A stretch of DNA of 45,215 nucleotides, taken from the IMG/VR virus record IMGVR_UViG_3300029533_000005, positions 1 through 45,215 of that record. The stretch is one strand, 5' to 3'. Under the pieces are notes generated by a model that did no database searches, was not told the origin of the DNA, and saw only the letters and a program-made list of their open reading frames with translations. This document shows, piece after piece, positions 5,449 through 40,138 of this stretch. This stretch comes from a virus. Made by a program: the position numbers and the translations under genes. The stretch's first letter is position 1. Each line of letters starts with the position of its first letter.

Positions 5449-5844
5449 ATGGGAATAGTAAAATTAAACCCGATAAATAAAGATGATTTAAAAGTCGGAG
5501 ATGTGGTTGGAGTCGCAAGGGGAGTATGGTGCGGATGGGGAGCAAGTTTTAGACACGTCATGGTGTATCCTACAAAGATTATTCGTATAACTCCTAAACG
5601 AACTAAAATTGAAACCGACAAGTTTGGAGAACACGATAAACATGAAGTGTTTTATAAATACGATTCCGATGCCATAAAAGAAAGTGAAATGGCGAAGCAG
5701 TTTAAAGCAATCAAAGATGGTGTATATGCCATTGAAGATTTTAAGTCGAGCCGTGGGCTGAGAGTAATTAAAGACGAAGATTTAGATGCACTGTCAGAGC
5801 ATATTAATGCAGTTGCAGAAATTCTGAAAAGTTATGGAAAATGA
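5449..5844 (+). CDS. hypothetical protein
   Basis: A 131-aa ORF that is co-directional and translationally coupled to the next gene. Confidence 0.55.
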   Translation: MGIVKLNPINKDDLKVGDVVGVARGVWCGWGASFRHVMVYPTKIIRITPKRTKIETDKFGEHDKHEVFYKYDSDAIKESEMAKQFKAIKDGVYAIEDFKSSRGLRVIKDEDLDALSEHINAVAEILKSYGK

Positions 5845-7590: not shown

Positions 7591-7932
7591 CTTGAAGAAG
7601 CTATTAAACATGCGAGAGAATTGGCAGAGAGAAACTATAAAAATGTGAGAACTTATCCCCAAGAACTATGGAAGCCAGGTGAATTGGAAAACTGTCAAAA
7701 ATGCGCCGAAGAACACGATCAGTTAGCAAAGTGGTTGCAAGAATTAAAAGAATGTCGAGAGTCTGAAAACGATAATATCTTTTATCAGATCAGAAAAAAG
7801 TTAAAGGAAGATAAAATTCCAGAAAATATGGAACCGTTTATAAAAGAACACCATTACAGATCGACAGAAAATGAAACAGTGCTGGAAGTTAAGATTGGAT
7901 GGAGGGAAAGGTCAACTACCCATTACCTTTAG
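7576..7932 (+). CDS. hypothetical protein (MERLT N-terminus)
   Basis: A 118-aa ORF that shares its first 5 codons and its 5' junction with the gene at 8782. Confidence 0.55.
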   Translation: MERLTLEEAIKHARELAERNYKNVRTYPQELWKPGELENCQKCAEEHDQLAKWLQELKECRESENDNIFYQIRKKLKEDKIPENMEPFIKEHHYRSTENETVLEVKIGWRERSTTHYL

Positions 7933-7949
7933 GTGGTGGGTTTCCGCCT

Positions 7950-8156
7950 ATGGCAAACGAAAGGATTTTATTTATGAAAAACGGAATCATATGCAAAGAA
8001 GACGGCGATGCACTGCTTGAAATCTATCGGGCAATCAATGTTTATGACGGATCGCTGAACCGCAATCTGACTATGGAAGAAATGGTTTTGATATTTGCGC
8101 TTGGACACGCTATAAAAGAGAATTTTGCGGAAGGAAGGGAAGTAGATGGCAATTAA
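7950..8156 (+). CDS. hypothetical protein
   Basis: Start moved to ATG 7950 (MANERILFMKNG...). The longer track start would overlap the upstream gene. Confidence 0.45.
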   Translation: MANERILFMKNGIICKEDGDALLEIYRAINVYDGSLNRNLTMEEMVLIFALGHAIKENFAEGREVDGN

Positions 8157-8781
8157 ACCGATTTTATTCAACACCGAAATGGTGAGAGCAATTCTGGATG
8201 GAAGAAAGACTTGCACACGGCGAGTGGTAAAAACCAGACGAAAAGACGCTTGTGGGTTCTACGTTACGAAAAGACCGGACGGCTCATTTACCGGAATATA
8301 TGAATATGACGAAGATGAGAGAATGTTCGAAAATCAGTTGATTCCACCGTACAAGTCGGGAGATATCCTGTATGTCCGGGAAACATGGTGTGATCTTCCA
8401 GTCAATAAAGCCGGTCATATGCGTGGTCATTCCATCTATTATTACAAGGCAGATGGAGATCTGCGACCTGAAGGTTGGCGTGGTAACTGGCGCCCATCAA
8501 TTCATATGCCGAAAGAAGCCGCTAGGATATGGCTTAAGGTTACGGATGTAAGAGTTGAGCGATTGAATGAGATTACGGATAAAGGCGCCGAGCGAGAAGG
8601 AGCACAGCCAGATTATCCATTTGATTACGATGTGGATAAGTGGCCGAATTTGGAGCATTTCAAAAAAATTTGGAACAGCACCATCAAGAAATCTGAACTT
8701 GACCGCTACGGCTGGCAGGCTAATCCGTGGGTGTGGGTGATTAGCTTTGAGCGATGTGAGAAACCGGAGGTGGTGAAGTAG
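8146..8781 (+). CDS. hypothetical protein, possibly ASCH/PUA-like
   Basis: The N-terminal PILFNTEMVRAILDGRKTCTRRV is a motif I associate with ASCH-like phage proteins. This is not verified. Confidence 0.4.
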   Translation: MAIKPILFNTEMVRAILDGRKTCTRRVVKTRRKDACGFYVTKRPDGSFTGIYEYDEDERMFENQLIPPYKSGDILYVRETWCDLPVNKAGHMRGHSIYYYKADGDLRPEGWRGNWRPSIHMPKEAARIWLKVTDVRVERLNEITDKGAEREGAQPDYPFDYDVDKWPNLEHFKKIWNSTIKKSELDRYGWQANPWVWVISFERCEKPEVVK

Positions 8782-8796
8782 ATGGAGAGATTAACA
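8772..8796 (+). repeat. 25-nt exact repeat spanning a gene junction (partner at 7566..7590)
   Basis: The sequence is identical to 7566..7590. Confidence 0.85.
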
Positions 8797-9372
8797 GAAA
8801 GATACGTTCCAAATAATGAAAAGAAAGGGATTGCAGGGATAAAGGTATTTGAATCTGAGAATAAAACACCTCTTGTTAAAGTATTAAGCGGAGAATATTT
8901 ATATCCTGCAATTGAAAAGCTTGCTGATTATGAAGAGTTAGAAGAACGTCTACATAAAATATTTGGAGAAGAATCTACATTTTCTCTTGCTGATGTAATT
9001 GATGCTCTGGAAATGAAGCTTTCTGAACCGGATAAGAAACATCCCGTAAACGCAAGAATTTTGACTTACGAAGAAGCGAATAAATGGCAAGAATATAAAG
9101 ATTTAGAAGAACAGGGCTTGCTTGTGAGACTTCCGTGCAAAGTCGGAGATACTGTGTACACGGTAAGTTATAGGTATGAATGTACTCGTAATTATGATTG
9201 CAAAGTATTCCAAAAGTGGAAATGTGAAGACAATATTCCATGCGAATACGAAAAGAAAGAATATTTTGTGAAAAAATCTCAGTTTTGCTTAACCATGTTG
9301 AATTCTCTTGGAAAAACTATATTTCTCACCCGTGAGGAAGCAGAAAAGGCATTGGAGAAGATGGGAAAATGA
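8782..9372 (+). CDS. hypothetical protein (MERLT N-terminus)
   Basis: A 196-aa co-directional ORF. Confidence 0.55.
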   Translation: MERLTERYVPNNEKKGIAGIKVFESENKTPLVKVLSGEYLYPAIEKLADYEELEERLHKIFGEESTFSLADVIDALEMKLSEPDKKHPVNARILTYEEANKWQEYKDLEEQGLLVRLPCKVGDTVYTVSYRYECTRNYDCKVFQKWKCEDNIPCEYEKKEYFVKKSQFCLTMLNSLGKTIFLTREEAEKALEKMGK

Positions 9373-9584
9373 AATTTAAAGAGTTTGTGAATTGGTGCAA
9401 TGAAAGAGCATGTGATGGATGCTGGGGAATGCTAACAGCTATGGCGTGCATTGATTTAATACAACAGGTTAGAAAAATCCCTTTCTGGAGAAGAGAGAAG
9501 TTTTGGAAAGAAAATTACGAACATCAGGTATTAGACGAGATTGTTAATCCGATAGAAAAGAAACTGGAGGAAATGGGGAAATAA
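9369..9584 (+). CDS. hypothetical protein
   Basis: A 71-aa ORF with an ATGA overlap to the upstream gene. Confidence 0.5.
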   Translation: MKFKEFVNWCNERACDGCWGMLTAMACIDLIQQVRKIPFWRREKFWKENYEHQVLDEIVNPIEKKLEEMGK

Positions 9585-9589
9585 TGTAA

Positions 9590-9628
9590 CGTTGAGGTGG
9601 GGACAACAAGAAATGCTCTGTATGGTAA
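9590..9628 (+). promoter_or_regulatory. bipartite conserved motif CGTTGAGGTGGGGACAA-N16-TGGTAA (candidate late promoter or activator site), copy 1
   Basis: The same 17-mer, the same 16-nt spacing and the same TGGTAA recur at 19960..19998. This copy lies 55 nt upstream of the small terminase start. Confidence 0.5.
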
Positions 9629-9683
9629 CATGGAAATAGAGAATCCATGACCATATGGGGCATTTTTAGTTGGAGGTGAGTAC

Positions 9684-10124
9684 GTGGGAAAGGCACCAAA
9701 GTACACAAGTGTCAAAGAAGTAGAGGATAAAATAGCACAGTATTTTGAAAAGTGCAAGGGTTATCCATTGACCGATGACGAAGGGAAACAAGTCTATAAC
9801 AAATTCGGCCAGCCTATTTTTGTGGACGTTCACCCGCCAACGGTAACGGGGCTAGCATTAGCACTAGGATTCACCAGTAGACAAGCACTTCTAAATTATC
9901 AAGCAAAACCACAGTTCGTTGACACGATTACGCGCGCGAAAGCCAGAGTAGAGCAGTATGCAGAAGAAAGACTGTTTGATCGTGATGGTTCCAATGGCGC
10001 ACAATTTAGCTTGAGAAATAACTTTAAAGGCTGGGACGTTGATAAGAAAAATGATGATTCTGGAGAAGGAAAGATTACGATTGTAAACAATATTCCGAGA
10101 CCGGAGAAACAGGATGGAAAGTAA
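9684..10124 (+). CDS. terminase small subunit
   Basis: GTG start after GGAGGTG. PPTVTGLALALGFTSRQALLNY is an HTH typical of small terminases. The gene lies directly upstream of the large subunit. Confidence 0.75.
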   Translation: MGKAPKYTSVKEVEDKIAQYFEKCKGYPLTDDEGKQVYNKFGQPIFVDVHPPTVTGLALALGFTSRQALLNYQAKPQFVDTITRAKARVEQYAEERLFDRDGSNGAQFSLRNNFKGWDVDKKNDDSGEGKITIVNNIPRPEKQDGK

Positions 10125-11370
10125 TGCTGTCAAGCTAAACGAAATAATAGCCCCGGCTTTTTATGATGTGTTCTGGGATGTGTTAGACGGAAAGCATACC
10201 TATTATGATTTATACGGCGGGCGAGGTTCTACGAAATCTTCTTTTGTTGGAACCATGATTCCATTCCAGATGATGCAGGATGCAGAAAATGGTATCATTA
10301 CGAATGCAGTAGTATTTCGCAAGGTTGGAAACACGCTCCGGGAATCTGTATACGAACAGATAGCATGGGGAATAGATGCACTAGGAGCCAATGATTTATG
10401 GGATGCCAGCATCAGCCCTATGCAGTATACATATAAACCTACTGGACAGAAAGTCATATTTAGAGGTCTTGATAAAGCAAAGAAAACAAAATCTATCAAA
10501 TCTAGTAAAGGATATTTTAAATATCTTTGGTTTGAGGAACTCGACGAATTCTCTGGCATTGAGGAAATTCGTACAGTGCAGCAATCGGTTCTTCGAGGTG
10601 GTAGCAAGTTTGTAGTATATAAGACCTTCAACCCGCCGATCAGCCGGAGCAACTGGGCAAACGTATACGTGTCCGAGCCACGAGCGGACAGTTATAGACA
10701 TAAGAGTGATTATAGAACCGTTCCTGCTGAATGGCTGGGACAACAGTTTTTTGATGATGCGGAGCATCTAAAAAAGACAAGTCCCAGAGCCTACGATCAT
10801 GAATATCTTGGCTTGCCTGTTGGACTTGGAACGAATATCTTTGACCTGTTGGAGATCCGGACGATTACAGACGAAGAAATCCAGAAGTATCAAAGTATAT
10901 ACCAAGGACAGGACTGGGGATGGTATCCAGATCCAAAGGCGTTTATACGTGCTGCTTACGTGGCTAATCAAGAAAAGGTTGTTCTTTTAGATGAAATGGG
11001 TGGGTGCAAGATCCGTAACACGGTTATGGCTAACCAGATCAAAGAAAAACAGTATGATGATTACACCATCTATTGTGGAGTTGATGAAGAAGAAAGCATA
11101 ATTGACTTCCGAGATGCTGGAATTCCGGCACGTAGGGCTTTGGTAACACCTGGAAGCCGTAAATATACGTTTGAGTGGTTGCAATGCCGGACTATCGTTA
11201 TAGATCCAGCAAGAACCCCACGAGCATATAAAGAGATCATTGAGTACGAACATGAAGTGGATAGCAATGGGAATGTGATTGCAGATTATCCAGACGGTAA
11301 CGATCACTGGATAGATGCGTTACGTTATAGCATCTCCCCGATGGCAATGAGACGAGGTCATAGCGCATAA
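10114..11370 (+). CDS. terminase large subunit (PBSX/Terminase_3-like)
   Basis: Walker A-like motif YGGRGSTKSS, acidic WFEELDE, and a C-terminal nuclease-like DHWIDALRY. Size and position fit. Confidence 0.85.
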   Translation: MESNAVKLNEIIAPAFYDVFWDVLDGKHTYYDLYGGRGSTKSSFVGTMIPFQMMQDAENGIITNAVVFRKVGNTLRESVYEQIAWGIDALGANDLWDASISPMQYTYKPTGQKVIFRGLDKAKKTKSIKSSKGYFKYLWFEELDEFSGIEEIRTVQQSVLRGGSKFVVYKTFNPPISRSNWANVYVSEPRADSYRHKSDYRTVPAEWLGQQFFDDAEHLKKTSPRAYDHEYLGLPVGLGTNIFDLLEIRTITDEEIQKYQSIYQGQDWGWYPDPKAFIRAAYVANQEKVVLLDEMGGCKIRNTVMANQIKEKQYDDYTIYCGVDEEESIIDFRDAGIPARRALVTPGSRKYTFEWLQCRTIVIDPARTPRAYKEIIEYEHEVDSNGNVIADYPDGNDHWIDALRYSISPMAMRRGHSA

Positions 11371-19998: not shown

Positions 19999-20220
19999 AC
20001 TAAAATTGCGGAAACGATATATCTGTTGTATATTTTCTTACCTCCTTTCTAGCACACGTCCTTAAGAGAAATCAGCAGCAATGCTGAGAGGTTGAAAAGC
20101 GGATGCAATTTCCGGCGTGTGCAAGCTACTTGCTTTTCTCCTACAAGTAGAAATCATACCTGCTAAGTGCGCTGAAAACTGCCTTTATGGTGTGACAATC
20201 TAAGCGCGGCAGTCCCCCAG

Positions 20221-20291
20221 TGGAACATACGGTTAATGGCAAACCGACAGGGTATCACCCTGGATTCCAGGTTCGATTCCTGGTGCTCCAC
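20221..20291 (+). tRNA. tRNA-like gene with a non-canonical anticodon arm (5-nt loop UAUCA); possibly a pseudo or decoy tRNA
   Basis: Folded by hand. The acceptor is tggaaca/tgctcca (one A.C mismatch). The D arm is cggt-taatggcaa-accg. The third stem is caggg/ccctg with loop tatca. The T arm is ccagg-ttcgatt-cctgg. Confidence 0.45.
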
Positions 20292-20353
20292 TTCTATCCG
20301 CTTAAAGTTAAGCTATCTGTTTACAGATGGTCTATGGCTTGGGTGGATTTTTT

Positions 20354-20426
20354 TGGAACATAGTTCAGCGGCTAGAGCATCTGGCTCATAACCAGAGTGT
20401 CGGCGGTTCGAATCCGTCTGTTCCAA
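20354..20426 (+). tRNA. tRNA with CAT anticodon (elongator Met, or Ile2 if lysidine-modified)
   Basis: Folded by hand. The acceptor is tggaaca/tgttcca. The D arm is gttc-agcggcta-gagc. The anticodon arm is tctgg-ctCATaa-ccaga. The T arm is ggcgg-ttcgaat-ccgtc. No CCA is encoded. Confidence 0.8.
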
Positions 20427-20504
20427 CTACCCCGCCGGAGGTTTACCCGGCTTAATCCATTACCGCTGACGGGCGGTTTTAATAATCACGTATAGGAGGA
20501 TGTT

Positions 20505-22864: not shown

Positions 22865-23204
22865 AGTGAATGTTTTAGGCTCTGAATGGAGTGTGGTGTT
22901 CGGAACTGAGAAAGAATATCAAAACTTATCAGAGATGGACGGATACGCCGATTTCTCAACCCATCAGATCGTGATTGACACTATGGAAAAAGCTGACGGT
23001 CAGATTGGATTTAAGGGAGATATGGCCGAGTATAAAAAGCAGGTGATCCGTCACGAGATCATCCACGCTTTCTTATATGAGTCTGGCCTGGAAGCGTGTT
23101 CAACCACTTCTGATAACTGGGCGCTTAACGAAGAAATGGTTGATTGGTTCGCTATCCAGTCTCCAAAAATTTTCAAAGTATTCAACGAACTTAAATTGAT
23201 GTGA
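22830..23204 (+). CDS. small HExxH metallopeptidase-like protein
   Basis: VIRHEIIHAFLYESGL contains HExxH followed by E. The protein is 124 aa. Confidence 0.5.
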   Translation: MKGYQFYMQDFKVNVLGSEWSVVFGTEKEYQNLSEMDGYADFSTHQIVIDTMEKADGQIGFKGDMAEYKKQVIRHEIIHAFLYESGLEACSTTSDNWALNEEMVDWFAIQSPKIFKVFNELKLM

Positions 23205-23208
23205 ATAC

Positions 23209-23229
23209 CAGTATTGTATGCAGGAGTGT
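23209..23229 (+). repeat. 21-bp direct repeat (left) bracketing the methyltransferase gene
   Basis: cagtattgtatgcaggagtgt is identical to 24781..24801. It contains the SD (AGGAG) used by the gene that follows. Confidence 0.85.
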
Positions 23230-23233
23230 AAAA

Positions 23234-24778
23234 ATGGAATTAAAAGAACTCACTAGTAAAACAATAGAACTGTTGAACATTGAAAATCCAGAACAGATTC
23301 CAGACTCTTTGATGGAAATTGTGCTGAATGGAAAAACAGAATTTTTTGACAGATTTTGCAATCTGGTTGAGGACTTATCCATTGACTGGTTGCAAAAGAT
23401 TTTCCAATATTATCTTGCTGATAGAAAAGTAAAGATGCAGGATTACACGCCTGTTTCATTAGCAAGATTTGCCGGAAAACTGGTGCAAACAGAAAACGAA
23501 CGCACTGTATATGATTTATGCGCCGGAAGTGGTGCATTGACTATTCAAAAATGGAATCTGAATAATGAATTGAAATTCGTATGTTATGAGTACGATAAAA
23601 CGGTTATTCCTATTTTGCTTTTCAATCTGGCAGTAAGAAATATTGATGCAGTTGTTGTAAATGGCGATGCATTGCAGGATGAAGTTTTCACAACTTATCT
23701 TGTAAAGAAAGGTGAAAAATATTCTTCTGTAAAAAAGACAGAAAATTTTAAACTGGAAAAGACAGATAGTTGTATTTCAAATCCACCATACAATATGAAG
23801 TGGAAGATACCGCCGTTTGCACAGCTGCAACCTCGCTTTAACGACTGTGAGTTGCCGCCAGAAAGCAATGCAAATTATGCTTTTATTTTGACCGCATTAG
23901 ATAATTGCAAGGAAAAAGTTTCAATGATTCTTCCGTGTGGGATATTAACTTCGAATCTAAAAAATGAAATAGAAATAAGAAAGTATCTTATTGAGAAGAA
24001 TCTGATAGAATCAGTTATTTTGTGTCCAGATAAAATGTTTGAAGCTACTTCGATTGCAACTTGTCTTTTGACACTGAACAAGAAAAAAGAGACAACACAT
24101 ATTGCATTTTTAGATATGCGTAAAACTTGCGATGTAGAGCAAAGAGAACAGAATGGACAGTTTGGCGGGGCAAGCCACGAAAACAGAACATACAAAAAAA
24201 CAGTTAATGTTTTTACTAACGAACAGATGGAAAACGCCATTGATGCTATCGTTAATCAGAAAAATGTCGCCGAATTTTCAAAAAGCGTGCCTTTTCAAAC
24301 TGTAGCAGAAAACAAATATACTCTTCTCCCAACACGATACCTTGAATTTAAAGAAGAGGATTTTACACACAGAGATTACGGAGAAATCATTGACGACTTA
24401 AACAGAGTTATCAATGAGAAAAATGGTCTCAAACTGACAATGAATGAAACACTTGCAAAATCAATCGGATTGTATGACATATTCCAGATGTTCAAGCAGT
24501 CGGAAGAAACAGCGGATTCCATGAATCAAATGCTTGCTTTTACCGGAAAGAAAATCGAAAAAGAAAACTTTATTTCCATGACGAAGAAAGCAGGAGAACT
24601 GAAATTTGAAAATGGAAGCAAGAACAACATATCAACTATATTGCTTTCAATTTTACAGATGTGGAAACAACACATAATGTATCTGAACAATGAAGAAAAC
24701 AGATATTTGATAGAATTGAGAGACGCGCTTTTACCAGATTTAATGTCTGGAAAAATTGATTTACGAGGTGACAAATAA
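23234..24778 (+). CDS. N6-adenine DNA methyltransferase (HsdM / type IIG-like) with an HsdS-like C-terminal helix; orphan (no nuclease partner seen)
   Basis: Motif I is DLCAGSGALT and motif IV is SNPPYNMKW. The C-terminus LIELRDALLPDLMSGKIDL resembles the conserved end of specificity subunits. Start set to the ATG after the repeat-borne SD. Confidence 0.8.
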   Translation: MELKELTSKTIELLNIENPEQIPDSLMEIVLNGKTEFFDRFCNLVEDLSIDWLQKIFQYYLADRKVKMQDYTPVSLARFAGKLVQTENERTVYDLCAGSGALTIQKWNLNNELKFVCYEYDKTVIPILLFNLAVRNIDAVVVNGDALQDEVFTTYLVKKGEKYSSVKKTENFKLEKTDSCISNPPYNMKWKIPPFAQLQPRFNDCELPPESNANYAFILTALDNCKEKVSMILPCGILTSNLKNEIEIRKYLIEKNLIESVILCPDKMFEATSIATCLLTLNKKKETTHIAFLDMRKTCDVEQREQNGQFGGASHENRTYKKTVNVFTNEQMENAIDAIVNQKNVAEFSKSVPFQTVAENKYTLLPTRYLEFKEEDFTHRDYGEIIDDLNRVINEKNGLKLTMNETLAKSIGLYDIFQMFKQSEETADSMNQMLAFTGKKIEKENFISMTKKAGELKFENGSKNNISTILLSILQMWKQHIMYLNNEENRYLIELRDALLPDLMSGKIDLRGDK

Positions 24779-34702: not shown

Positions 34703-35592
34703 TGGGAGAATGTTTACTGCAAAAAAATGGAGTTACGGTTGATAGTACCGCCGTAACCGCTACTGAGTCCGATGTACTGATCGGAAAGACATATATGAAA
34801 TCCAATGGTGATAAGGGTGTAGGCACAAAACCAGATAACGGATCACCCCAGAAAACTTTACCACTGAATGGGTCGATTGTACTTCCTTCTGGTTACTACA
34901 GTGGCGGCACTGTAAAATCATCTGTTCCAACATATAACGGCGAAACAATCGTTACTGGAAAAAATGCGGTAACCGTAAAAACCAGTGGAAAGTACGCAAC
35001 CGGAAACATAGAATTAAAGCCAATCGCCAACCTTACATCCGCAGTCATAAAAAAAGGCATGTATGTAGCAGGTATAGGGCCTGGAACGTGGGAAGGATAT
35101 CTCAACGAAGACCCCAACATGCCATTTTATTATGGCACTTTAGGCCCTGGCTTTACAACAGACTTGGTAAAAATTACATCAGGTAAATACACTCTCGGTA
35201 GCGCAAAAATCATAAAAGATGCATACTGGATATTTACCGGAGGATTTTACGAGGGCATTGCGATTGGATTTGCAAAAGCATTGGATTTTACTAAGTTAAG
35301 CAAAGTAAAAATCATAGCCGATAAAATTCAAGGAAAAGGTCTTAGCCTGCTGATAACAGAAAATTATTTTACAGACCAGTTAGCAAATGCTATGGGCAAT
35401 GAATGGTTGACAAGTCTTGGAGCCATCGTTGATGTAAGAATAATGACAGCCGATGGACAAACAGAATGGGTCCTTAACCTTGACAACTATACATCAGATC
35501 AAAGATCAAAAATGAAGTATATATATGTGTTCCTTGGAATCCAGTCATCAGCAGAATGTGAATATAATATTTATAAAATTCAATGTGTATAA
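34702..35592 (+). CDS. tail fibre-like protein
   Basis: A 296-aa ORF whose N-terminal motif is shared with the ORF at 34280. Confidence 0.4.
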   Translation: MGECLLQKNGVTVDSTAVTATESDVLIGKTYMKSNGDKGVGTKPDNGSPQKTLPLNGSIVLPSGYYSGGTVKSSVPTYNGETIVTGKNAVTVKTSGKYATGNIELKPIANLTSAVIKKGMYVAGIGPGTWEGYLNEDPNMPFYYGTLGPGFTTDLVKITSGKYTLGSAKIIKDAYWIFTGGFYEGIAIGFAKALDFTKLSKVKIIADKIQGKGLSLLITENYFTDQLANAMGNEWLTSLGAIVDVRIMTADGQTEWVLNLDNYTSDQRSKMKYIYVFLGIQSSAECEYNIYKIQCV

Positions 35593-35602
35593 GGAGAAAC
35601 AA

Positions 35603-36334
35603 ATGGAAGAAAATAAACCACTTGCAACCGAAACCGAATATCCAGATTCAGACACCGACATTATCAACGGAGACGGAACACCGATCATCGACACATCAGA
35701 CCAGAATGTTGACACCGCCCAGGAGGAGTCTAATACTTCGAAGTCTGATTCAGAAGAAAGCACAGAGAATAGCAGCACCACAAATACGGAAGAAAACGGA
35801 GCGGAAAAGGATACCACCACAGAGGTTGTCACAGATCCAGCAAATGATCCAGCAACTCTTGAGTCCGCACTACTGGTGTCTACCTATGCTGCTTTGAACA
35901 AACTGGCCGATTATGTACCGACTGAGTACGTCAATAATTCAGAACCGGATATTGACGCAGAGCATCTCAATAACACAGAACAGGGGCTTTTACGGGTGAC
36001 TAACCTGTTAAACGGTGCGGTAGATGTGATCAATGATTTACAATCCACTGTGGCGAAGCAGGCCAGTGCGATTGATACGCTAAATAGCAAGAAAGTATTA
36101 GAGATTGCAAAAACAACGGCAAAATCTAATAGTGCCGGGAATTGTATCTTTCAATACCCAACAGGCTTTACACAAAGCAGTACATTACTACTGTGTGTAA
36201 AATATATCAATAACAGCTCACGACCTATTATTAAGAATGGAGAGACTGAGCTTTGGGGTGGAAGCATCGAAGTAAAAAATCTTAATGTTCAAGAGGGAAC
36301 AGAAGTTACTGCTTTTTTAGCAAAAATCATATAG
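35603..36334 (+). CDS. tail fibre / receptor-binding protein with a switchable C-terminus (constant part up to Ser162, current C-terminal cassette C0 of 81 aa)
   Basis: Start reset to ATG 35603 after AAGGAGAAAC. This is the last structural gene. It contains recombination-site copy 0 in frame (cta aat agc aag = LNSK). Confidence 0.6.
   Translation: MEENKPLATETEYPDSDTDIINGDGTPIIDTSDQNVDTAQEESNTSKSDSEESTENSSTTNTEENGAEKDTTTEVVTDPANDPATLESALLVSTYAALNKLADYVPTEYVNNSEPDIDAEHLNNTEQGLLRVTNLLNGAVDVINDLQSTVAKQASAIDTLNSKKVLEIAKTTAKSNSAGNCIFQYPTGFTQSSTLLLCVKYINNSSRPIIKNGETELWGGSIEVKNLNVQEGTEVTAFLAKII
36078..36090 (+). other. putative recombination site, copy 0 (cgcTAAATAGCAA) inside the tail fibre gene
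   Basis: It shares 13 nt with copy 1 (in inverted orientation) and a 10-11 nt core with copies 2 and 3. The codon phase is the same at all coding copies. Confidence 0.6.
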
Positions 36335-36338
36335 TAAT

Positions 36339-36662
36339 TCAAAATCTTCCAATAAAGATAGGATTTTCGTATGTTGCACATTTAAAAATTACCGTTTTTT
36401 TATCAGTAGCAATGGATGCAGTTGCATTAGTCGTGCCGGTGAAATCTGATATCTGGATAAGTTCACATGAATTAAATACGCCGCCACTTTGTCCAAGCCG
36501 CACTATGTATAGTTCACTTCGACAAAGGCAGAATATACCTTGATCGGCAATTTGCGGTTTGATCTGATAGGTGGAAATTCCACCAGATGATGATGTCGAT
36601 GATGGAATAAGCATTCTTTTATTAAATTTGGCTTCAATTCTAGCCTCTATATTGCTATTTAG
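36339..36662 (-). CDS. promoter-less alternative tail-fibre C-terminal cassette CA (about 104 aa after LNS)
   Basis: The minus-strand ORF opens at site copy 1 in phase (cta aat agc aat ata gag = LNSNIE) and converges on the fibre stop 5 nt away. No convincing RBS or ATG lies upstream. Confidence 0.55.
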   Translation of the reverse strand, partial: LNSNIEARIEAKFNKRMLIPSSTSSSGGISTYQIKPQIADQGIFCLCRSELYIVRLGQSGGVFNSCELIQISDFTGTTNATASIATDKKTVIFKCATYENPIFIGRF

Positions 36663-36664
36663 CG
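36651..36664 (-). other. putative recombination site, copy 1 (cgcTAAATAGCAAT on the minus strand)
   Basis: Read directly: plus strand attgctatttagcg. It is inverted relative to copy 0. Confidence 0.6.
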
Positions 36665-36683
36665 GCTTAAAAAATCCATAAAA

Positions 36684-36717
36684 GCGGCTCATGAGAAAAT
36701 TCATGGGTCGCTTTTTT
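36684..36717 (+). terminator. strong plus-strand intrinsic terminator just outside the first invertible segment
   Basis: An 11-bp stem gcggcucauga/ucaugggucgc (two G.U pairs, which would be C.A mismatches on the other strand), a 6-nt loop, then UUUUUU. Confidence 0.7.
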
Positions 36718-36879
36718 ATCCGAAAAAGGTTGATTTTTTGATCGCTAGTATTAAAATAAAAAACGAGTGGACATCTACCCTCGCAAAGTACCTGCCCACT
36801 CAATCTCTCAATGAGATCGGGTCTATTATACCACGATCTCTATTTGAGCACAACAAAAATAAAAAGGAGATTGTGCGGT

Positions 36880-37875
36880 ATGTCTAACGAAATCAGAAAT
36901 CAAATTATCATGGAACTTCAAAAAGAATTCACGGCTGACCAGCTGAAAATCATTGATTTAGCAGTAGCAAAGGCAATGAGGGGATACAGAATAGAAAAAG
37001 AAGAAACGCTTCCGGCTCCAACAGTGTATGAGTTGCCATATGACATACGAGAATTCATAGCCAGAAAGAAGCTGAAAGGCTGTTCTGACGGCACAATAGA
37101 ACAGTATGGTAATTTACTCAAAGATTTTACATTGTGGCTTAAAAAGGATTTGAGAAGCGTACAGGACATAGATATTTTGGCTTATCTGGACTGGAGAGCG
37201 AAGCTTGGTGCAGGTATGCGCACGTTGGACGGCAAGCGGCTTATCTTATCATCTTTTTACACGTATATGCATGATACAGGTAAAATGGCATATAATCCAT
37301 GTAAAGCCGTTGACCCGGTTAAATACAAAGCCAAAATAAGGCAGCCTTTAACAGATATGGAGTTAGAACAGGTTCGTTCTTCTTGCAAGACGCTACGTGA
37401 GAAAGCGCTATTTGAGACTCTGTATGCTACGGGATGCCGTGTCAGCGAGATTGTTGGAATTGATTACGCAGAGATAGACAAGAAATCTAGGTGTGTGGTG
37501 ATCACCGGAAAAGGAGACCAGGAACGTCTGGTATTTTTGAACGCTAAAGCCATGTTTGCAATCGAAAAATATATTGAAAGCAGAAATGATGATACCCCGG
37601 CTCTTTTCGTGTCTTCCAGGGCTCCATATGGCCGACTAGGGAAAGAAGCCATTGAAAGAGAGATAAAGGCCATCGGAAAACGTTCTGGAATCGGTAGGTC
37701 AGTATTCCCGCATCTTATGCGCCATACCTTTGCAACGGATATGTTGGAGCATGGTGCATCACTGAATGAGGTTTCCGATCTTTTAGGTCATAAAAAGCTG
37801 GATACCACAAAGATTTATGCAAAGACCAGCGTGAGATCCCTTGAAATTGCATATAAACGTCATCATGCAGCATAA
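36880..37875 (+). CDS. tyrosine recombinase (XerC/D- or Rci-like), candidate shufflon invertase
   Basis: Catalytic pattern ATGCRVSE (R), GKGDQER (K), HLMRHTFAT (HxxR) and LLGHKKLDTTKIYAKT (H...Y). The gene sits between site copies 1 and 2. Start reset to ATG 36880 after AAAGGAG. Confidence 0.8.
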   Translation: MSNEIRNQIIMELQKEFTADQLKIIDLAVAKAMRGYRIEKEETLPAPTVYELPYDIREFIARKKLKGCSDGTIEQYGNLLKDFTLWLKKDLRSVQDIDILAYLDWRAKLGAGMRTLDGKRLILSSFYTYMHDTGKMAYNPCKAVDPVKYKAKIRQPLTDMELEQVRSSCKTLREKALFETLYATGCRVSEIVGIDYAEIDKKSRCVVITGKGDQERLVFLNAKAMFAIEKYIESRNDDTPALFVSSRAPYGRLGKEAIEREIKAIGKRSGIGRSVFPHLMRHTFATDMLEHGASLNEVSDLLGHKKLDTTKIYAKTSVRSLEIAYKRHHAA

Positions 37876-37905
37876 GGCACAATAAGAAAATAACGTTTTA
37901 AAAAT

Positions 37906-37928
37906 AGACTGCCGTAGGTGGTCTTTTT
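37906..37928 (+). terminator. intrinsic terminator after the recombinase gene
   Basis: Stem agacugcc/gguggucu (with G.U pairs), 3-nt loop, then UUUUU. Confidence 0.5.
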
Positions 37929-37996
37929 GGCGTGAGAAAACGAAAATGTATAAATAATATTTTTTTGGAATATATTTACTTGATAGAATTGCAAGA

Positions 37997-38007
37997 TAAA
38001 TAGCAAT
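37997..38007 (+). other. putative recombination site, copy 2 (TAAATAGCAAT)
   Basis: Read directly. In phase it is followed by only a 9-codon tail (GGTFSDVKL stop). Confidence 0.55.
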
Positions 38008-38031
38008 GGTGGTACTTTTAGTGATGTAAAA

Positions 38032-38532
38032 CTATGATACTTCGGTCAACGACGGCGCATACCAATGCCATCCAGTGGAATTCCGACCAAAAACTACCAT
38101 TCTTGGATTATCAGATATTAAGATACACCAGCCATAGTTAACTGAAGTGCGCATCCATAAGATGCTAAATCCGGATGTACCAAAATATCCGTCAGAATCT
38201 GATGGTTCTACACGAACAAATGTACATTTACCTGGCGTACCATTATTTTTTACCCATTCACCAATATTGGATAATTTCCCGCTCAGAGAAATGTAGTCTA
38301 CGCCATTGTATTGGGTCACGCCTAAATAATCCTTTGTGGCAAGCAGTTTTTCGGATCCCCATGCACCATTGGTCTGTGCATTCACAGCTATGGACTTATC
38401 TTCTTCATTCATCCGTAGCATTAACAAACTGTTAGTAATTTTGTTGATTAAGTACATATATGGACCATTGTCAACTTTACCGATTACCAATTTGGCATTT
38501 TCAGATTGGAAGTTACTCAAATTGCTATTTAT
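38032..38532 (-). CDS. promoter-less alternative tail-fibre C-terminal cassette CB (about 163 aa after INS)
   Basis: The minus-strand ORF opens at site copy 3 in phase (ata aat agc aat ttg agt = INSNLS). A stop lies 2 codons further upstream. There is no RBS and no ATG. The sequence is beta-rich. Confidence 0.55.
   Translation of the reverse strand: MNSNLSNFQSENAKLVIGKVDNGPYMYLINKITNSLLMLRMNEEDKSIAVNAQTNGAWGSEKLLATKDYLGVTQYNGVDYISLSGKLSNIGEWVKNNGTPGKCTFVRVEPSDSDGYFGTSGFSILWMRTSVNYGWCILISDNPRMVVFGRNSTGWHWYAPSLTEVS
38521..38531 (-). other. putative recombination site, copy 3 (TAAATAGCAAT on the minus strand)
   Basis: Read directly: plus strand attgctattta. It is inverted relative to copies 0 and 2. 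Confidence 0.55.
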
Positions 38533-38598
38533 TCTTTATAATTCTGAAATTCTTCAAAACTCCTCATAGAATATTTATACACTTAAATTTTAAATACT

Positions 38599-38622
38599 TC
38601 GTGTTGTATTTCGTGTTGTATT
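38599..38622 (+). repeat. tandem 12-mer (TCGTGTTGTATT x2), candidate integrase arm-type sites (P arm)
   Basis: Read directly. The same tandem pair recurs at 38805..38828, on the other side of the tRNA-like core. Confidence 0.6.
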
Positions 38623-38736
38623 TTTGTCTTAAATACTGTAAAATAGTATCAAATATGATATTTAAGTAAAATTTACGAGAGTTAAGAATACGCATAAATA
38701 AGGGAAATAGAGCAATTACGCAGTTTTTGAATGTAA

Positions 38737-38768
38737 GCGTTAGACGGGTTCGAGTCCCGTCTCGCGCT
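38737..38768 (+). other. attP core: 3' fragment of a tRNA gene (T arm, acceptor 3' strand and U73; Gly-like)
   Basis: acggg-ttcgagt-cccgt followed by ctcgcgc-t. No matching 5' half lies upstream. It sits next to the integrase gene. Confidence 0.6.
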
Positions 38769-38776
38769 CTCGAAAA

Positions 38777-38800
38777 GCCTAGTAAATACTAGGCTTTTTT
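38777..38800 (+). terminator. hairpin plus T-run following the tRNA fragment (overlaps the integrase stop codon)
   Basis: gcctagta/tactaggc followed by tttttt. Confidence 0.55.
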
Positions 38801-39922
38801 CTTTTCGTGTTGTATTTCGTGTTGTATTTTACTTTCAAAGTAAGAATCTATTTTGTTATCTACCATTTTTCTTTCCTCAGAAAATGTTTGAATATACACC
38901 TTTTTCATTATTTTATCATTCTTCCAGCCACCTCGTTCCTGGGCGTAATTGTCCGGGATCTGTAAAAGAGCCATTACGGAAGCACTTACGTGCCGCAGAT
39001 CATGAAAGGTGATCGGCTCCATTCCGGCTTTTTTCTGGAGCTTAATCCATCGGTGATAAAGCGCTTTTCCACTGATCGGAACCAGGACATCGCCATCCAC
39101 TTGGTCGATCAAGTTCATGATATATGGTGGGATTCTGTGAGATCTTCTTCGTGTAGGTTCTTTTGGATCTCCCTTTCTGACAGGCTTTCCGTCTACGTCT
39201 ACAACTACCTCATTGATCGTGATACATCCGTCTTTGATGGATTTTGATTTTGTAAGACCACGTACCTCAGACATGGAAAAGGATAACCACATAGCCAGCA
39301 GTACCGGGAGTTCAATATCCGTCCCACGTACCAGGTCAATCACAACGTCAGCCGTGGGCAGCTCCGGGATACGATCCGGAACAGATGGAAGATGTATCTC
39401 CTGTGTGTCAATGTTCTTTTTGTATTTGTGGAGTGTAGCACTCACCAGTCCCCACTCATTTTTTAGACGCTTTGCAGACAATGGTCTTTTGGCTCTTCCG
39501 TTAGTTGTGCGTTTCGACTCCATCGTAACAGCTTCTTGCAGGATCATTTCGTCAATGTCTTTTAGCTTCAACTCAAAGAGATCCTGGAATCCGTTGTTCA
39601 AAATGCAGTGGTAGTCCTGGATCGTACAAGGAGACCGATTAAGCGACACGCACATATCTATGTACTTTTCAGCCGCTTCTCTCAGTGTCATGTTATCAAG
39701 CGTATACTGCATGGATGCGTTGCTTTTTGGTTTATTTGCCAGCCATTCAGCGGCGGCTCGCTCCGCTTCCTTTTTCCCGGCTTTGCCTGGAAGATCAGAG
39801 GTAAAAGAGCGGTATCGTTTTACCTTTTTTAGTTCTCCGGTCTTTTCGTCCAACACGTTTTCCGTGTGGCTAAAGACCAGACACCGCCATGATCCAGACG
39901 GCAATTTCTTTGCATTTGCCAT
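38789..39922 (-). CDS. int: phage integrase (tyrosine recombinase)
   Basis: Start reset to MANAKKLPSGSWR after GGAGGATAC. Motifs ...SEVRGL, FHDLRHVSAS and GGWKNDKIMKKVYIQ are present. It lies adjacent to attP. Confidence 0.85.
   Translation of the reverse strand: MANAKKLPSGSWRCLVFSHTENVLDEKTGELKKVKRYRSFTSDLPGKAGKKEAERAAAEWLANKPKSNASMQYTLDNMTLREAAEKYIDMCVSLNRSPCTIQDYHCILNNGFQDLFELKLKDIDEMILQEAVTMESKRTTNGRAKRPLSAKRLKNEWGLVSATLHKYKKNIDTQEIHLPSVPDRIPELPTADVVIDLVRGTDIELPVLLAMWLSFSMSEVRGLTKSKSIKDGCITINEVVVDVDGKPVRKGDPKEPTRRRSHRIPPYIMNLIDQVDGDVLVPISGKALYHRWIKLQKKAGMEPITFHDLRHVSASVMALLQIPDNYAQERGGWKNDKIMKKVYIQTFSEERKMVDNKIDSYFESKIQHEIQHEKKKA
38805..38828 (+). repeat. tandem 12-mer (TCGTGTTGTATT x2), candidate arm-type sites (P' arm) embedded in the integrase 3' coding end
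   Basis: Read directly. On the minus strand it encodes the EIQHEIQHE tail of the integrase. Confidence 0.6.
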
Positions 39923-40138
39923 AGTGTATCCTCCTTTTGGGTATAAAAAATACAGCCTTACCAGATTTTGGAAATTTATCTTGCATGGCTGAGTCTGGGA
40001 TGATACAATAAGAGTGTAGGTTGATAGTGTATCATCCCAATTATTCAAAACGTCTGGTGTTGCAGCACCAGGCGTTTTTTCTGTGGGTACAAATTCCAAC
40101 GTGCTTTTTGATACAATAAAAAGAAAAAGGGTGATCTT

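Follow-up and report, generated by a model that had tools for sequence, protein, structure and literature searches.

The closest described relative of the locus reported here is the Rin shufflon of Bifidobacterium breve and Bifidobacterium longum prophages, in which an armless XerD-like tyrosine invertase acts at 11-bp asymmetric rix sites; a rix site precedes each variable C-terminus of the receptor-binding protein, and inversions are seen in both prophage and virion reads (Mavrich 2018, PMC6109161). A Rin shufflon was later reported in prophages of Eggerthella lenta (PMC8778435). Haloarchaeal viruses phiCh1, phiH1 and ChaoS9 possess an invertible tail-fibre module served by Int1 (PMC6471424), and, as mentioned in PMC9881135 and PMC6109161, tyrosine recombinases also shuffle in-frame half-gene cassettes in hsdS shufflons (e.g., PsrA/CreX in Streptococcus) and at SusC/SusD loci of Bacteroides (Tsr0667). 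We analyzed a locus in IMG/VR virus record IMGVR_UViG_3300029533_000005 (the whole stretch of 45,215 nt is hereafter the window), in which the last gene of the tail module contains the first of four short repeats and is followed by silent coding cassettes and an embedded tyrosine recombinase gene. With a probability of roughly 80%, we regard this locus as a Rin-like phage shufflon, whose recombinase exchanges the C-terminus of the protein encoded last in the tail module. A first-pass annotation, made from the DNA alone, had likewise proposed a shufflon-like system with an embedded tyrosine recombinase that exchanges the C-terminal end of a fibre, and that proposal is strengthened by a natural fusion protein, by breakpoints that fall exactly on the repeats, and by an intact catalytic set in the recombinase. 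The same annotation held that a tyrosine-recombinase shufflon on the fibre of a Gram-positive siphovirus was undescribed; given the Rin precedent (PMC6109161, PMC8778435), it is not.

Crossover sites and cassettes

An exact search for the 10-mer TAAATAGCAA found four copies in the window, which alternate in orientation over a span of 2.45 kb, and none elsewhere. Dinucleotide shuffles contained 0.17 copies on average, and none of 100 shuffles reached four. Copies 0 and 1 have the 13-nt CGCTAAATAGCAA in common, and copies 2 and 3 the 12-nt ATAAATAGCAAT. All four cores lie in one codon phase, and the core encodes an L/I-N-S-K/N junction. Copy 2 faces the non-coding back of a cassette (cassette C), where the in-phase reading gives only NGGTFSDVKL before a stop, and copy 3 has another stop codon two codons ahead of it. 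The number, spacing and alternation of the copies, the 13 nt common to copies 0 and 1, the stop ahead of copy 3, and the shared phase of the three coding copies had all been read from the sequence in the first-pass annotation and hold up here, with the phase now extended to the fourth copy. Coordinates of these and the other features are collected in Table 1.

The cores delimit three alternative C-terminal ends, alt0, alt1 and alt3, which are mutually unrelated in sequence. The stop codons of the fibre gene (36332-36334) and of alt1 (36339-36341) converge 4 nt apart with no core between them, in agreement with the earlier description of the alt1 open reading frame (ORF) as converging on the fibre stop. 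In L003, L005 and L021, an intact core is present between two tail-to-tail cassettes, unlike the alt0/alt1 pair; at the alt0 stop stands TATAGTAA, which is similar to the core AATAGCAA and possibly the remnant of a crossover site. The silent cassettes are in phase, promoterless, and lack both a Shine-Dalgarno sequence and a start codon of their own. The minus-strand ORFs had been described as having neither an ATG nor a ribosome-binding site; the second part of this statement stands, while two ATGs (36704 and 36692) lie in frame upstream of copy 1. Both are in the stem of the terminator described below and are without a Shine-Dalgarno sequence, and the minus-strand frame that contains them (36662-36803) has no stop over 59 codons, or over 26-82 codons in relatives. 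Gene callers sometimes report ORFs of 116-121 amino acids (aa) in this region, and a cassette at site 1 could in principle be translated with the short leader MNFLMSRFYGFFKP; this leader is not conserved in diverged relatives.

The core is also present, and in phase, in relatives, as it should be if the first-pass annotation were right. In the 31 sequences compared, which contain 62 sites, the 10-mer does not vary, synonymous positions included, the flanks are not conserved, and every site keeps the polarity of anchor, core and cassette. About 26 cassette types occur in these 31 sequences, each opening an in-phase ORF of 50-175 aa, and some of the flanks are cassette back ends. The isolate Lachnospiraceae bacterium AM48-27BH, the source of L011, has a related copy of the locus with six sites (QUFC01000008.1). 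In an isolate genome, two sites have A or G at position 1; therefore, the functional core may be AAATAGCAA.

Two further arrangements of cores were observed. In L041, a contig with an identical recombinase, the right slot (1700-2010) is occupied by a cassette of ~300 nt between the variant cores TAAATGGTTA and TAAATGGTAA, and the junction reads LNGN, not LNSN, which hints that either (i) strand exchange takes place left of core position 6, or (ii) that cassette is locked. In the related phage L007/L009, an extra inverted core pair (401-881) bounds two convergent, in-phase cassettes 4.3 kb upstream of the fibre gene, with other structural genes in between.

Rearrangements in public assemblies

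A search of the fibre protein against ~5.8 billion proteins yielded 272 relatives, many of which match residues 1-162 only and then diverge. In the closer homologues, the ...TLNS(K/N) junction is invariant and is continued by ~28 different sequences. Proteins P0010-P0013 are 325 aa long, and P0012 consists of window fibre residues 1-162 followed by the alt3 ORF of the window at 100% identity. It is encoded in at least seven contigs, from different samples and assemblers, and blastn alignments of these contigs to the window break exactly at the cores (...36090, then 38531->37997, then 36651->38007). Two other proteins, P0036 and P0055, end in NGGTFSDVKL, i.e., they are fibres cut short by fusion with the back of cassette C.

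P0012 is, residue for residue, the protein that had been predicted to arise by inversion between copies 0 and 3. The one-step product of that inversion, with the recombinase segment inverted, was not observed in any of ~19 independent contigs; contigs in which alt3 is joined to the fibre anchor would have arisen by a 0x3 inversion followed by a 1x2 inversion, or else by another route.

An exact look-up of the recombinase protein gave 21 contigs, and the arrangements seen are included in Table 1. Comparison of related assemblies, which the first-pass annotation had put forward as a check, found cassette C both ON and OFF with its breakpoints on the cores: the cassette occurs silent, expressed, and OFF-oriented in the expressed slot. 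Two integrated prophages from different samples, L002 (508-1042) and L006 (901-1435), have window position 36081 joined to 38531->37997, and this in turn joined to 38521 and onward. In both, the alt3 fusion runs straight into the right flank, with host genes (tRNA_edit, YqeC) beyond it, and neither the recombinase nor any other cassette is left; the arrangement looks like the result of a deletion between direct cores that has locked the fibre. L002 has 'ct' in place of 'aa' immediately left of the core, and this variant, together with the variant cores TAAATGGTAA of L041, suggests strand exchange left of core position 6. From the contigs as a whole, we infer that switching probably occurs within a population, and assembly breaks at the locus in metagenomes are consistent with such switching.

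Table 1. Features of the window and arrangements of the locus in public contigs. F0-F3 are the fixed flanks of the four cores; alt0 (c00), alt1 (c01), the back of cassette C (Cback, c02) and alt3 (c03) are the cassette ends; B is the recombinase segment.
Feature	Position or arrangement	Strand	Description
Fibre gene	35603-36334	+	243 aa; closes the tail module, downstream of the tape-measure and distal tail genes
Constant N-terminal part, residues 1-159	35603-36080	+	From ORF and translation; shared by 272 homologues
Crossover site 0, anchor F0	36081-36090	+	Inside the fibre gene (expression site); read (c)TA AAT AGC AA(g), L160 N161 S162 K163
alt0	36091-36334	+	Expressed 81-aa C-terminal end (KKVLEIAKTT...KII, stop); present in P0001
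alt1	36339-36651	-	Silent 104-aa end (NIEARIEAKF...GRF, stop), in phase with site 1, tail-to-tail with alt0
Crossover site 1, anchor F1	36652-36661	-	Left end of the recombinase segment
Intrinsic terminator	36680-36721	+	Hairpin 36680-36715 and U6 tail; free energy (dG) -21 kcal/mol, z -6.2
Tyrosine recombinase, presumed invertase	36880-37875	+	331 aa; armless, XerC/XerD/XerA-like, between sites 1 and 2
Crossover site 2, anchor F2	37997-38006	+	Right end of the recombinase segment
Cassette C	38007-38521	-	Silent 163-aa alt3 ORF, 38032-38521 (NLSNFQSEN...TEVS, stop), and 25-nt non-coding back facing site 2
Crossover site 3, anchor F3	38522-38531	-	Fixed right border, attP side
Window-type arrangement	F0-alt0, F1-alt1, B, F2-Cback, F3-alt3		L036, L043, L044
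Cassette C in left slot, ON	F0-alt3, F1-Cback, B, ...		L004, L001/L042
Cassette C in left slot, OFF	F1-alt3		L041, 100% identity over 367 nt
Cassette C OFF, matching end	F0-Cback		Truncated fibre (171 aa) in L045, 18.7-kb contig
Other cassette sets with identical recombinase			L003, L037-L040
Deletion form, without recombinase	F0-alt3, F3-Cback		Integrated prophages L002, L006

The embedded recombinase and the terminator

The gene between copies 1 and 2 had been called a Xer-like tyrosine recombinase, and its product indeed has a PF00589 domain (E=1.3e-34) preceded by a SAM-like core-binding domain, with no further domain. The best NCBIfam model is NF040815 (XerA/integron-integrase-type, 221 bits); the XerC and XerD models score below their cut-offs. 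Residues 56-329 align to the XerA and XerD structures 4a8e and 1a0p, and the full catalytic set is present (R187, K211, H278, R281, H304 and Y313). A recombinase is found between crossover sites in every relative. Judged by sequence, this enzyme is probably the catalyst of the rearrangements.

The hairpin upstream of the recombinase gene confirms the plus-strand-specific terminator that had been placed just outside the first invertible segment: on the minus strand the region folds at only -13.1. It ends fibre transcription whichever cassette occupies the left slot.

Recombinases that are 31-35% identical to this one occur in the cultured Clostridia phages phiCp-D, TPELB_ph1 and phiCs5676-1, in two of them directly after the tail genes. 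Those of Terrisporobacter phage TPELB_ph1 (L032, 17645-18640) and Clostridium phage phiCp-D (L033, 21639-22616), both 34% identical, are annotated 'integrase' and lie between the last tail gene and holin/endolysin; a separate integrase is also present. Convincing flanking inverted repeats were found in none of the three phages, and we therefore do not claim them as shufflons.

Evidence against the shufflon

Several observations weigh against a Rin-like shufflon in this phage. In each of ~19 independent contigs, even those of relatives with only 73% identity, segment B (36662-37996) has the same orientation as the fibre gene. If the 0x3 or 1x2 inversions were freely reversible, segment B would be inverted about half of the time, and it never is; this constancy suggests either (i) selection, acting on the orientation of the terminator and the recombinase, or (ii) another route between the slots. 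Inversion between copies 0 and 1 had been expected to yield fibre residues 1-162 fused to the 104-aa alt1; no such fusion was found among the fibre relatives or the alt1 homologues, either as a public protein or in a contig. The exact cassette set of the window (alt0/alt1 and C) was not found in another order among the compared contigs, and every alternative arrangement comes from a different sample, never two from one. Further, 10 conserved base pairs are few for a site of a tyrosine recombinase, and the 62 sites showed no conserved arms around the core.

The identity of the switched protein meets similar objections. Neither Pfam nor PHROGs gave a match for the fibre, alt1 or alt3, and a sequence search of the PDB with the alt3 fusion gave none. 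An AlphaFold2 (AF2) model of this fusion, built on an alignment of 11 sequences, reached a predicted local distance difference test score (pLDDT) of 38.6 and was unusable for a fold search. A Foldseek search with the AF2 model of alt1 returned nothing from the PDB or BFVD at E<=1e-3, the generic beta-sandwich matches having E>=7e-3.

Exchange of cassettes between phages

Cassettes are also held in common by phages that otherwise differ. Cassette C is 99.6% identical from core to core (window 37997-38531) in L011, L021 and L028, whose recombinase segment is ~73% identical to that of the window and whose fibre N-terminus does not align. L003 and L021 have another cassette, Y, in common, with 100% identity. 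In L034, a 99.6% identical alt0 is fused to an unrelated N-terminus (P0069) and has another neighbour; the identity stops 9 nt past the stop codon (~5645-5655). Each of L011 and L034 resembles a podovirus in having a P22-type portal and an internal virion protein, whereas the window phage has a tape-measure protein. Near-identical cassettes in phages with 73%-identical recombinase segments mean that cassettes also move between lineages, and, as far as sequence comparison goes, the core, the cassettes and the recombinase family are a portable module common to phage types of one host group. A gene for a 1159-aa SIR2_2-domain protein (7815-10651) directly follows the shufflon in L034.

A more far-reaching idea, which we advance only tentatively, is that the phages of a whole community draw fibre-tip cassettes from one pool, for which the core and the recombinase family act as a common standard of exchange; siphovirus-like and podovirus-like Lachnospiraceae phages of different lineages would trade head domains in trans through site-specific recombination. 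Such a receptor-binding-domain integron would be layered on the local inversion switch (ON, OFF or alternative). The constant orientation of segment B would then mean that cassettes reach another slot chiefly by capture and exchange rather than by inversion of the whole locus.

It is unlikely, in our estimation, that the locus is mainly an integron-like device for capturing cassettes and exchanging them, at the common core, between the genomes of co-resident or co-infecting phages, with nothing beyond local, one-slot flipping within a genome. Such a device would explain why cassettes are 99.6-100% identical in phages with diverged recombinase segments and unrelated fibre N-termini, and it is also favored by the different cassette sets of phages with identical recombinases, by a segment B that is never inverted, and by the XerA/integron-integrase-type family of the best NCBIfam model. 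However, a left slot that has the same cassette in both orientations (L004/L042 versus L041/L045) is the signature of intramolecular inversion, and the alternating orientation of the sites is what an inversion system requires. An integron proper was rejected: integron integrase models score 80 and 44 bits, far under their cut-offs of 265 and 435, the 10-bp cores are not attC hairpins and no attC-like structures were seen, and an Rfam scan of 35000-39500 gave zero matches.

Identity of the variable protein

The fibre protein begins with 90 acidic, Ser/Thr-rich and disordered-looking residues, after which come the conserved motif YVPTEYVNNSEPDIDAEHLNNTEQG and a long helix with ...AIDT at its end. 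The predicted layout is this long helix up to the junction and then a beta-rich domain. Of the C-termini whose structures the first-pass annotation had suggested predicting, only alt1 gave a reasonably confident AF2 model (pLDDT 75.7), with one helix and a 7-strand beta-sandwich; the alt3 fusion model, at low confidence, places a helix at 123-170. The alt1 domain has nine homologues of 68-95% identity with a conserved core, and the C-terminal ~100 aa of alt3 are always the extreme C-terminus in 81 representative proteins. One cassette, that of P0019, is an H-type lectin (H_lectin; Pfam 36.4 bits versus a cut-off of 24), and the fibre N-terminus of a diverged relative weakly matches tail-fibre PHROGs (E ~1e-3). 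A PDB sequence search with the 603-aa upstream tail protein gave no match.

Because the gene is the last of the tail module, and because of the helix and beta layout, the H-type lectin cassette, the C-terminal position of the alt3 domain and the weak PHROG matches in a relative, the variable protein is likely a tail fibre or receptor-binding tip, and its variable domain would bind a host receptor. The earlier label of a receptor-binding fibre thus draws support from gene position, one lectin cassette and weak PHROG matches, but not from a confident structure.

In a set of alt1 relatives from other phages (P0122-P0128), all short ORFs without a start, QNTKTSKTGHIHDDRYYTEAEIEAKF comes before this domain, and the sequence upstream of 'QNTKTS' is unrelated. 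They may represent a second shufflon family with a different junction.

Rather improbable, though less so than the explanations that follow, is a real switch whose variable protein is a head fibre, a decoration protein or an accessory adhesin, such that primary host range is unchanged. The lack of a family match and the acidic, disordered-looking first 90 residues would suit such a protein, and in diverged relatives the gene follows a portal-capsid-160aa-295aa series and not tail genes; in the window, conversely, it follows the tape-measure protein as the last gene of the tail module. A lectin cassette and the match of a relative's N-terminus to tail-fibre PHROGs, weak as it is, also count against this explanation, as does the GHIHDDRYYTEAE motif that precedes the alt1 relatives, a motif typical of tail fibres.

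We see very little chance that the locus is a static mosaic produced by ordinary recombination between phages, with a recombinase that serves for dimer resolution or as a second integrase and with 10-mers that are kept for the LNS(K/N) peptide. The junction is a conserved peptide motif, and homologous recombinases do follow the tail genes of cultured Clostridia phages that have no detectable inverted repeats, but two of the four cores lie outside any expressed gene (one behind a stop, one facing non-coding DNA), and the cores are identical even at synonymous positions in 62 sites. Nor would a mosaic account for silent cassettes that are promoterless, without start codons, in phase and inverted, or for one segment in both orientations in near-identical genomes, and 10 bp is far too short for RecA-type exchange. 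A diversity-generating retroelement would not fit well either, the variation being whole-cassette replacement at a fixed site. Finally, assembly chimeras across the repeats, which one might suspect where many contigs end in or near the locus and where L002 and L006 join the fusion to the right flank without the recombinase, were rejected as scarcely credible, since repeats of 10-13 bp are far under the k-mers used (31-141) and MEGAHIT, SPAdes and Logan assemblies of independent samples contain the same junctions, always in frame and with site polarity respected.

Proposed mechanism and significance

In the Rin-like shufflon that we favor, a constant N-terminal part ending in a long helix (...AIDTLNS) would carry an exchangeable C-terminal head domain of ~80-170 aa. 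The four cores would bound three segments: a left slot with alt0 and alt1 tail-to-tail, a middle segment with the terminator and the recombinase, and a right slot with alt3. The XerD-like recombinase would join pairs of cores with their polarity kept, one anchor side always to one cassette side. Inversion of the left slot would change the cassette end that is fused in frame to the fibre, and inversions spanning segment B would shift cassettes between slots. Because polarity is strictly kept at the junctions, 16 arrangements and four expression states can be predicted, namely alt0, alt1, alt3, and a truncated fibre ending in NGGTFSDVKL. Recombination between direct cores would produce deletions that lock the fibre, and the common core in related phages would permit exchange of cassettes between genomes.

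If this is correct, a switch that gives one Lachnospiraceae phage several tail tips, or none, would explain plasticity of host range at the level of strains, in temperate gut phages whose host range is hard to predict. Near-identical cassettes with boundaries exactly at the core suggest a modular library of exchangeable binding domains, which could guide the engineering of phages against commensals of the class Clostridia. The related copy in AM48-27BH offers a cultured entry point.

Genome and host setting

The ends of the window overlap by 81 nt, so that the assembly is circular and the genome ~45.1 kb long; it is the complete genome of a temperate phage of a gut Lachnospiraceae host. Sequencing runs in which this phage is present are ERR1190964, SRR25729093, SRR20648110, SRR29820866, SRR35399762, SRR15219991, SRR27751726 and ERR13612555. 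The gene order is TerL, portal, minor head protein, scaffold, major head protein, an 895-aa tape-measure protein and distal tail genes, followed by the switch locus, an attP-like region, an integrase, and an ImmA/CI/helix-turn-helix (HTH) lysogeny module. The integrase beside attP (38789-40099) is a second, longer enzyme, separate from the embedded recombinase. A megablast search of the locus against 50,697 phage records gave zero matches.

The attP-like region (38598-38839) contains a tRNA 3'-end-like fragment (~38733-38768, GGGTTCGAGTCCCGTC...) bracketed by two 36-nt direct repeats TTCGTGTTGTATTTCGTGTTGTATTT (38598-38633 and 38804-38839), which are possibly arm sites of the integrase. Prophage contigs part from the window sequence at 38771, and ARAGORN found no full tRNA at the attP-like region or in the prophage junctions of L002 and L006. 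Two phage tRNA genes lie among the head genes (20220-20427), identified by ARAGORN as tRNA-Asp (with an unusual ATC anticodon) and tRNA-Met (CAT), and a gene for a 525-aa DNA methyltransferase (23201-24778) sits within the head and tail genes.

Comparison with known systems

Switches of fibre C-termini are best known from the Gin/Cin/Pin/Min group (Mu G, P1 C, e14 P and p15B Min), in which inversion likewise exchanges the C-terminal, host-range-determining part of the fibre, with several segments in the case of Min. These systems, however, belong to Gram-negative myoviruses and use serine invertases, Fis-dependent enhancers and sites of ~26 bp. Membership in this group was rejected, as the embedded enzyme is of the tyrosine type (PF00589), not PF00239, and no resolvase-type protein (PF00239) is present among the ten other window ORFs of 190-255 aa.

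The R64/IncI shufflon (Rci, sfx, pilV) resembles this locus in its multiple inversion by a tyrosine recombinase at asymmetric, polar sites and in its convergent C-terminal cassettes, which are fused in frame to a constant N-terminus and, in R64, change adhesin specificity. It is a plasmid system with a pilus adhesin as its target, its sfx sites are 19 bp long, and its rci gene lies outside the shuffled segments. Here the target is a phage structural gene and not pilV, the core is 10 bp and not a 19-bp sfx, the recombinase gene is within an invertible segment, and the recombinase is, among the models compared, best described as XerA/XerC/XerD-like.

The haloarchaeal Int1 module also has a viral tyrosine recombinase embedded between opposed fibre coding regions, and its inversion changes the expressed C-terminus. 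Unlike the short single cores and start-less cassettes described here, it consists of two near-complete fibre genes with repeat clusters, allows two partners only, and belongs to archaeal myoviruses. The hsdS and SusC/SusD shufflons are chromosomal, have longer inverted repeats, and act on restriction-modification or outer-membrane targets, not on phage structural genes.

A literature search of incomplete coverage found no description of a system of this kind in phages of Firmicutes or Lachnospiraceae. In its way of working the locus is nearest to Rin, a likeness that need not imply common lineage. Both are found in temperate siphoviruses of Gram-positive gut bacteria, and in both a phage-encoded, armless XerD-like recombinase adjoins the variable locus, and rare, short, asymmetric sites mark where a constant N-terminal part meets promoterless, highly dissimilar C-terminal cassettes. 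The cassettes of the window are in phase and start-less, and rearrangements at the sites are seen between contigs. The differences are equally plain. The rix core TTCCCTAACCC is unrelated to TAAATAGCAA and has no match in the window at up to 2 mismatches; the Rv genes of Rin stand in a row between Rc and rin, while the recombinase here lies between two slots, with back-to-back convergent cassettes like those of R64 or Min; and here, apart from Rin, one core, one cassette pool and one recombinase family serve both siphovirus-like and podovirus-like phages. The hosts of Rin are Actinomycetota, and those of the present locus are Bacillota (Lachnospiraceae), to whose phages it would extend the Rin-type shufflons. 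Rin is therefore the closest described system: the kind of system was already known, and what is new is a Bacillota member with a different site and layout.

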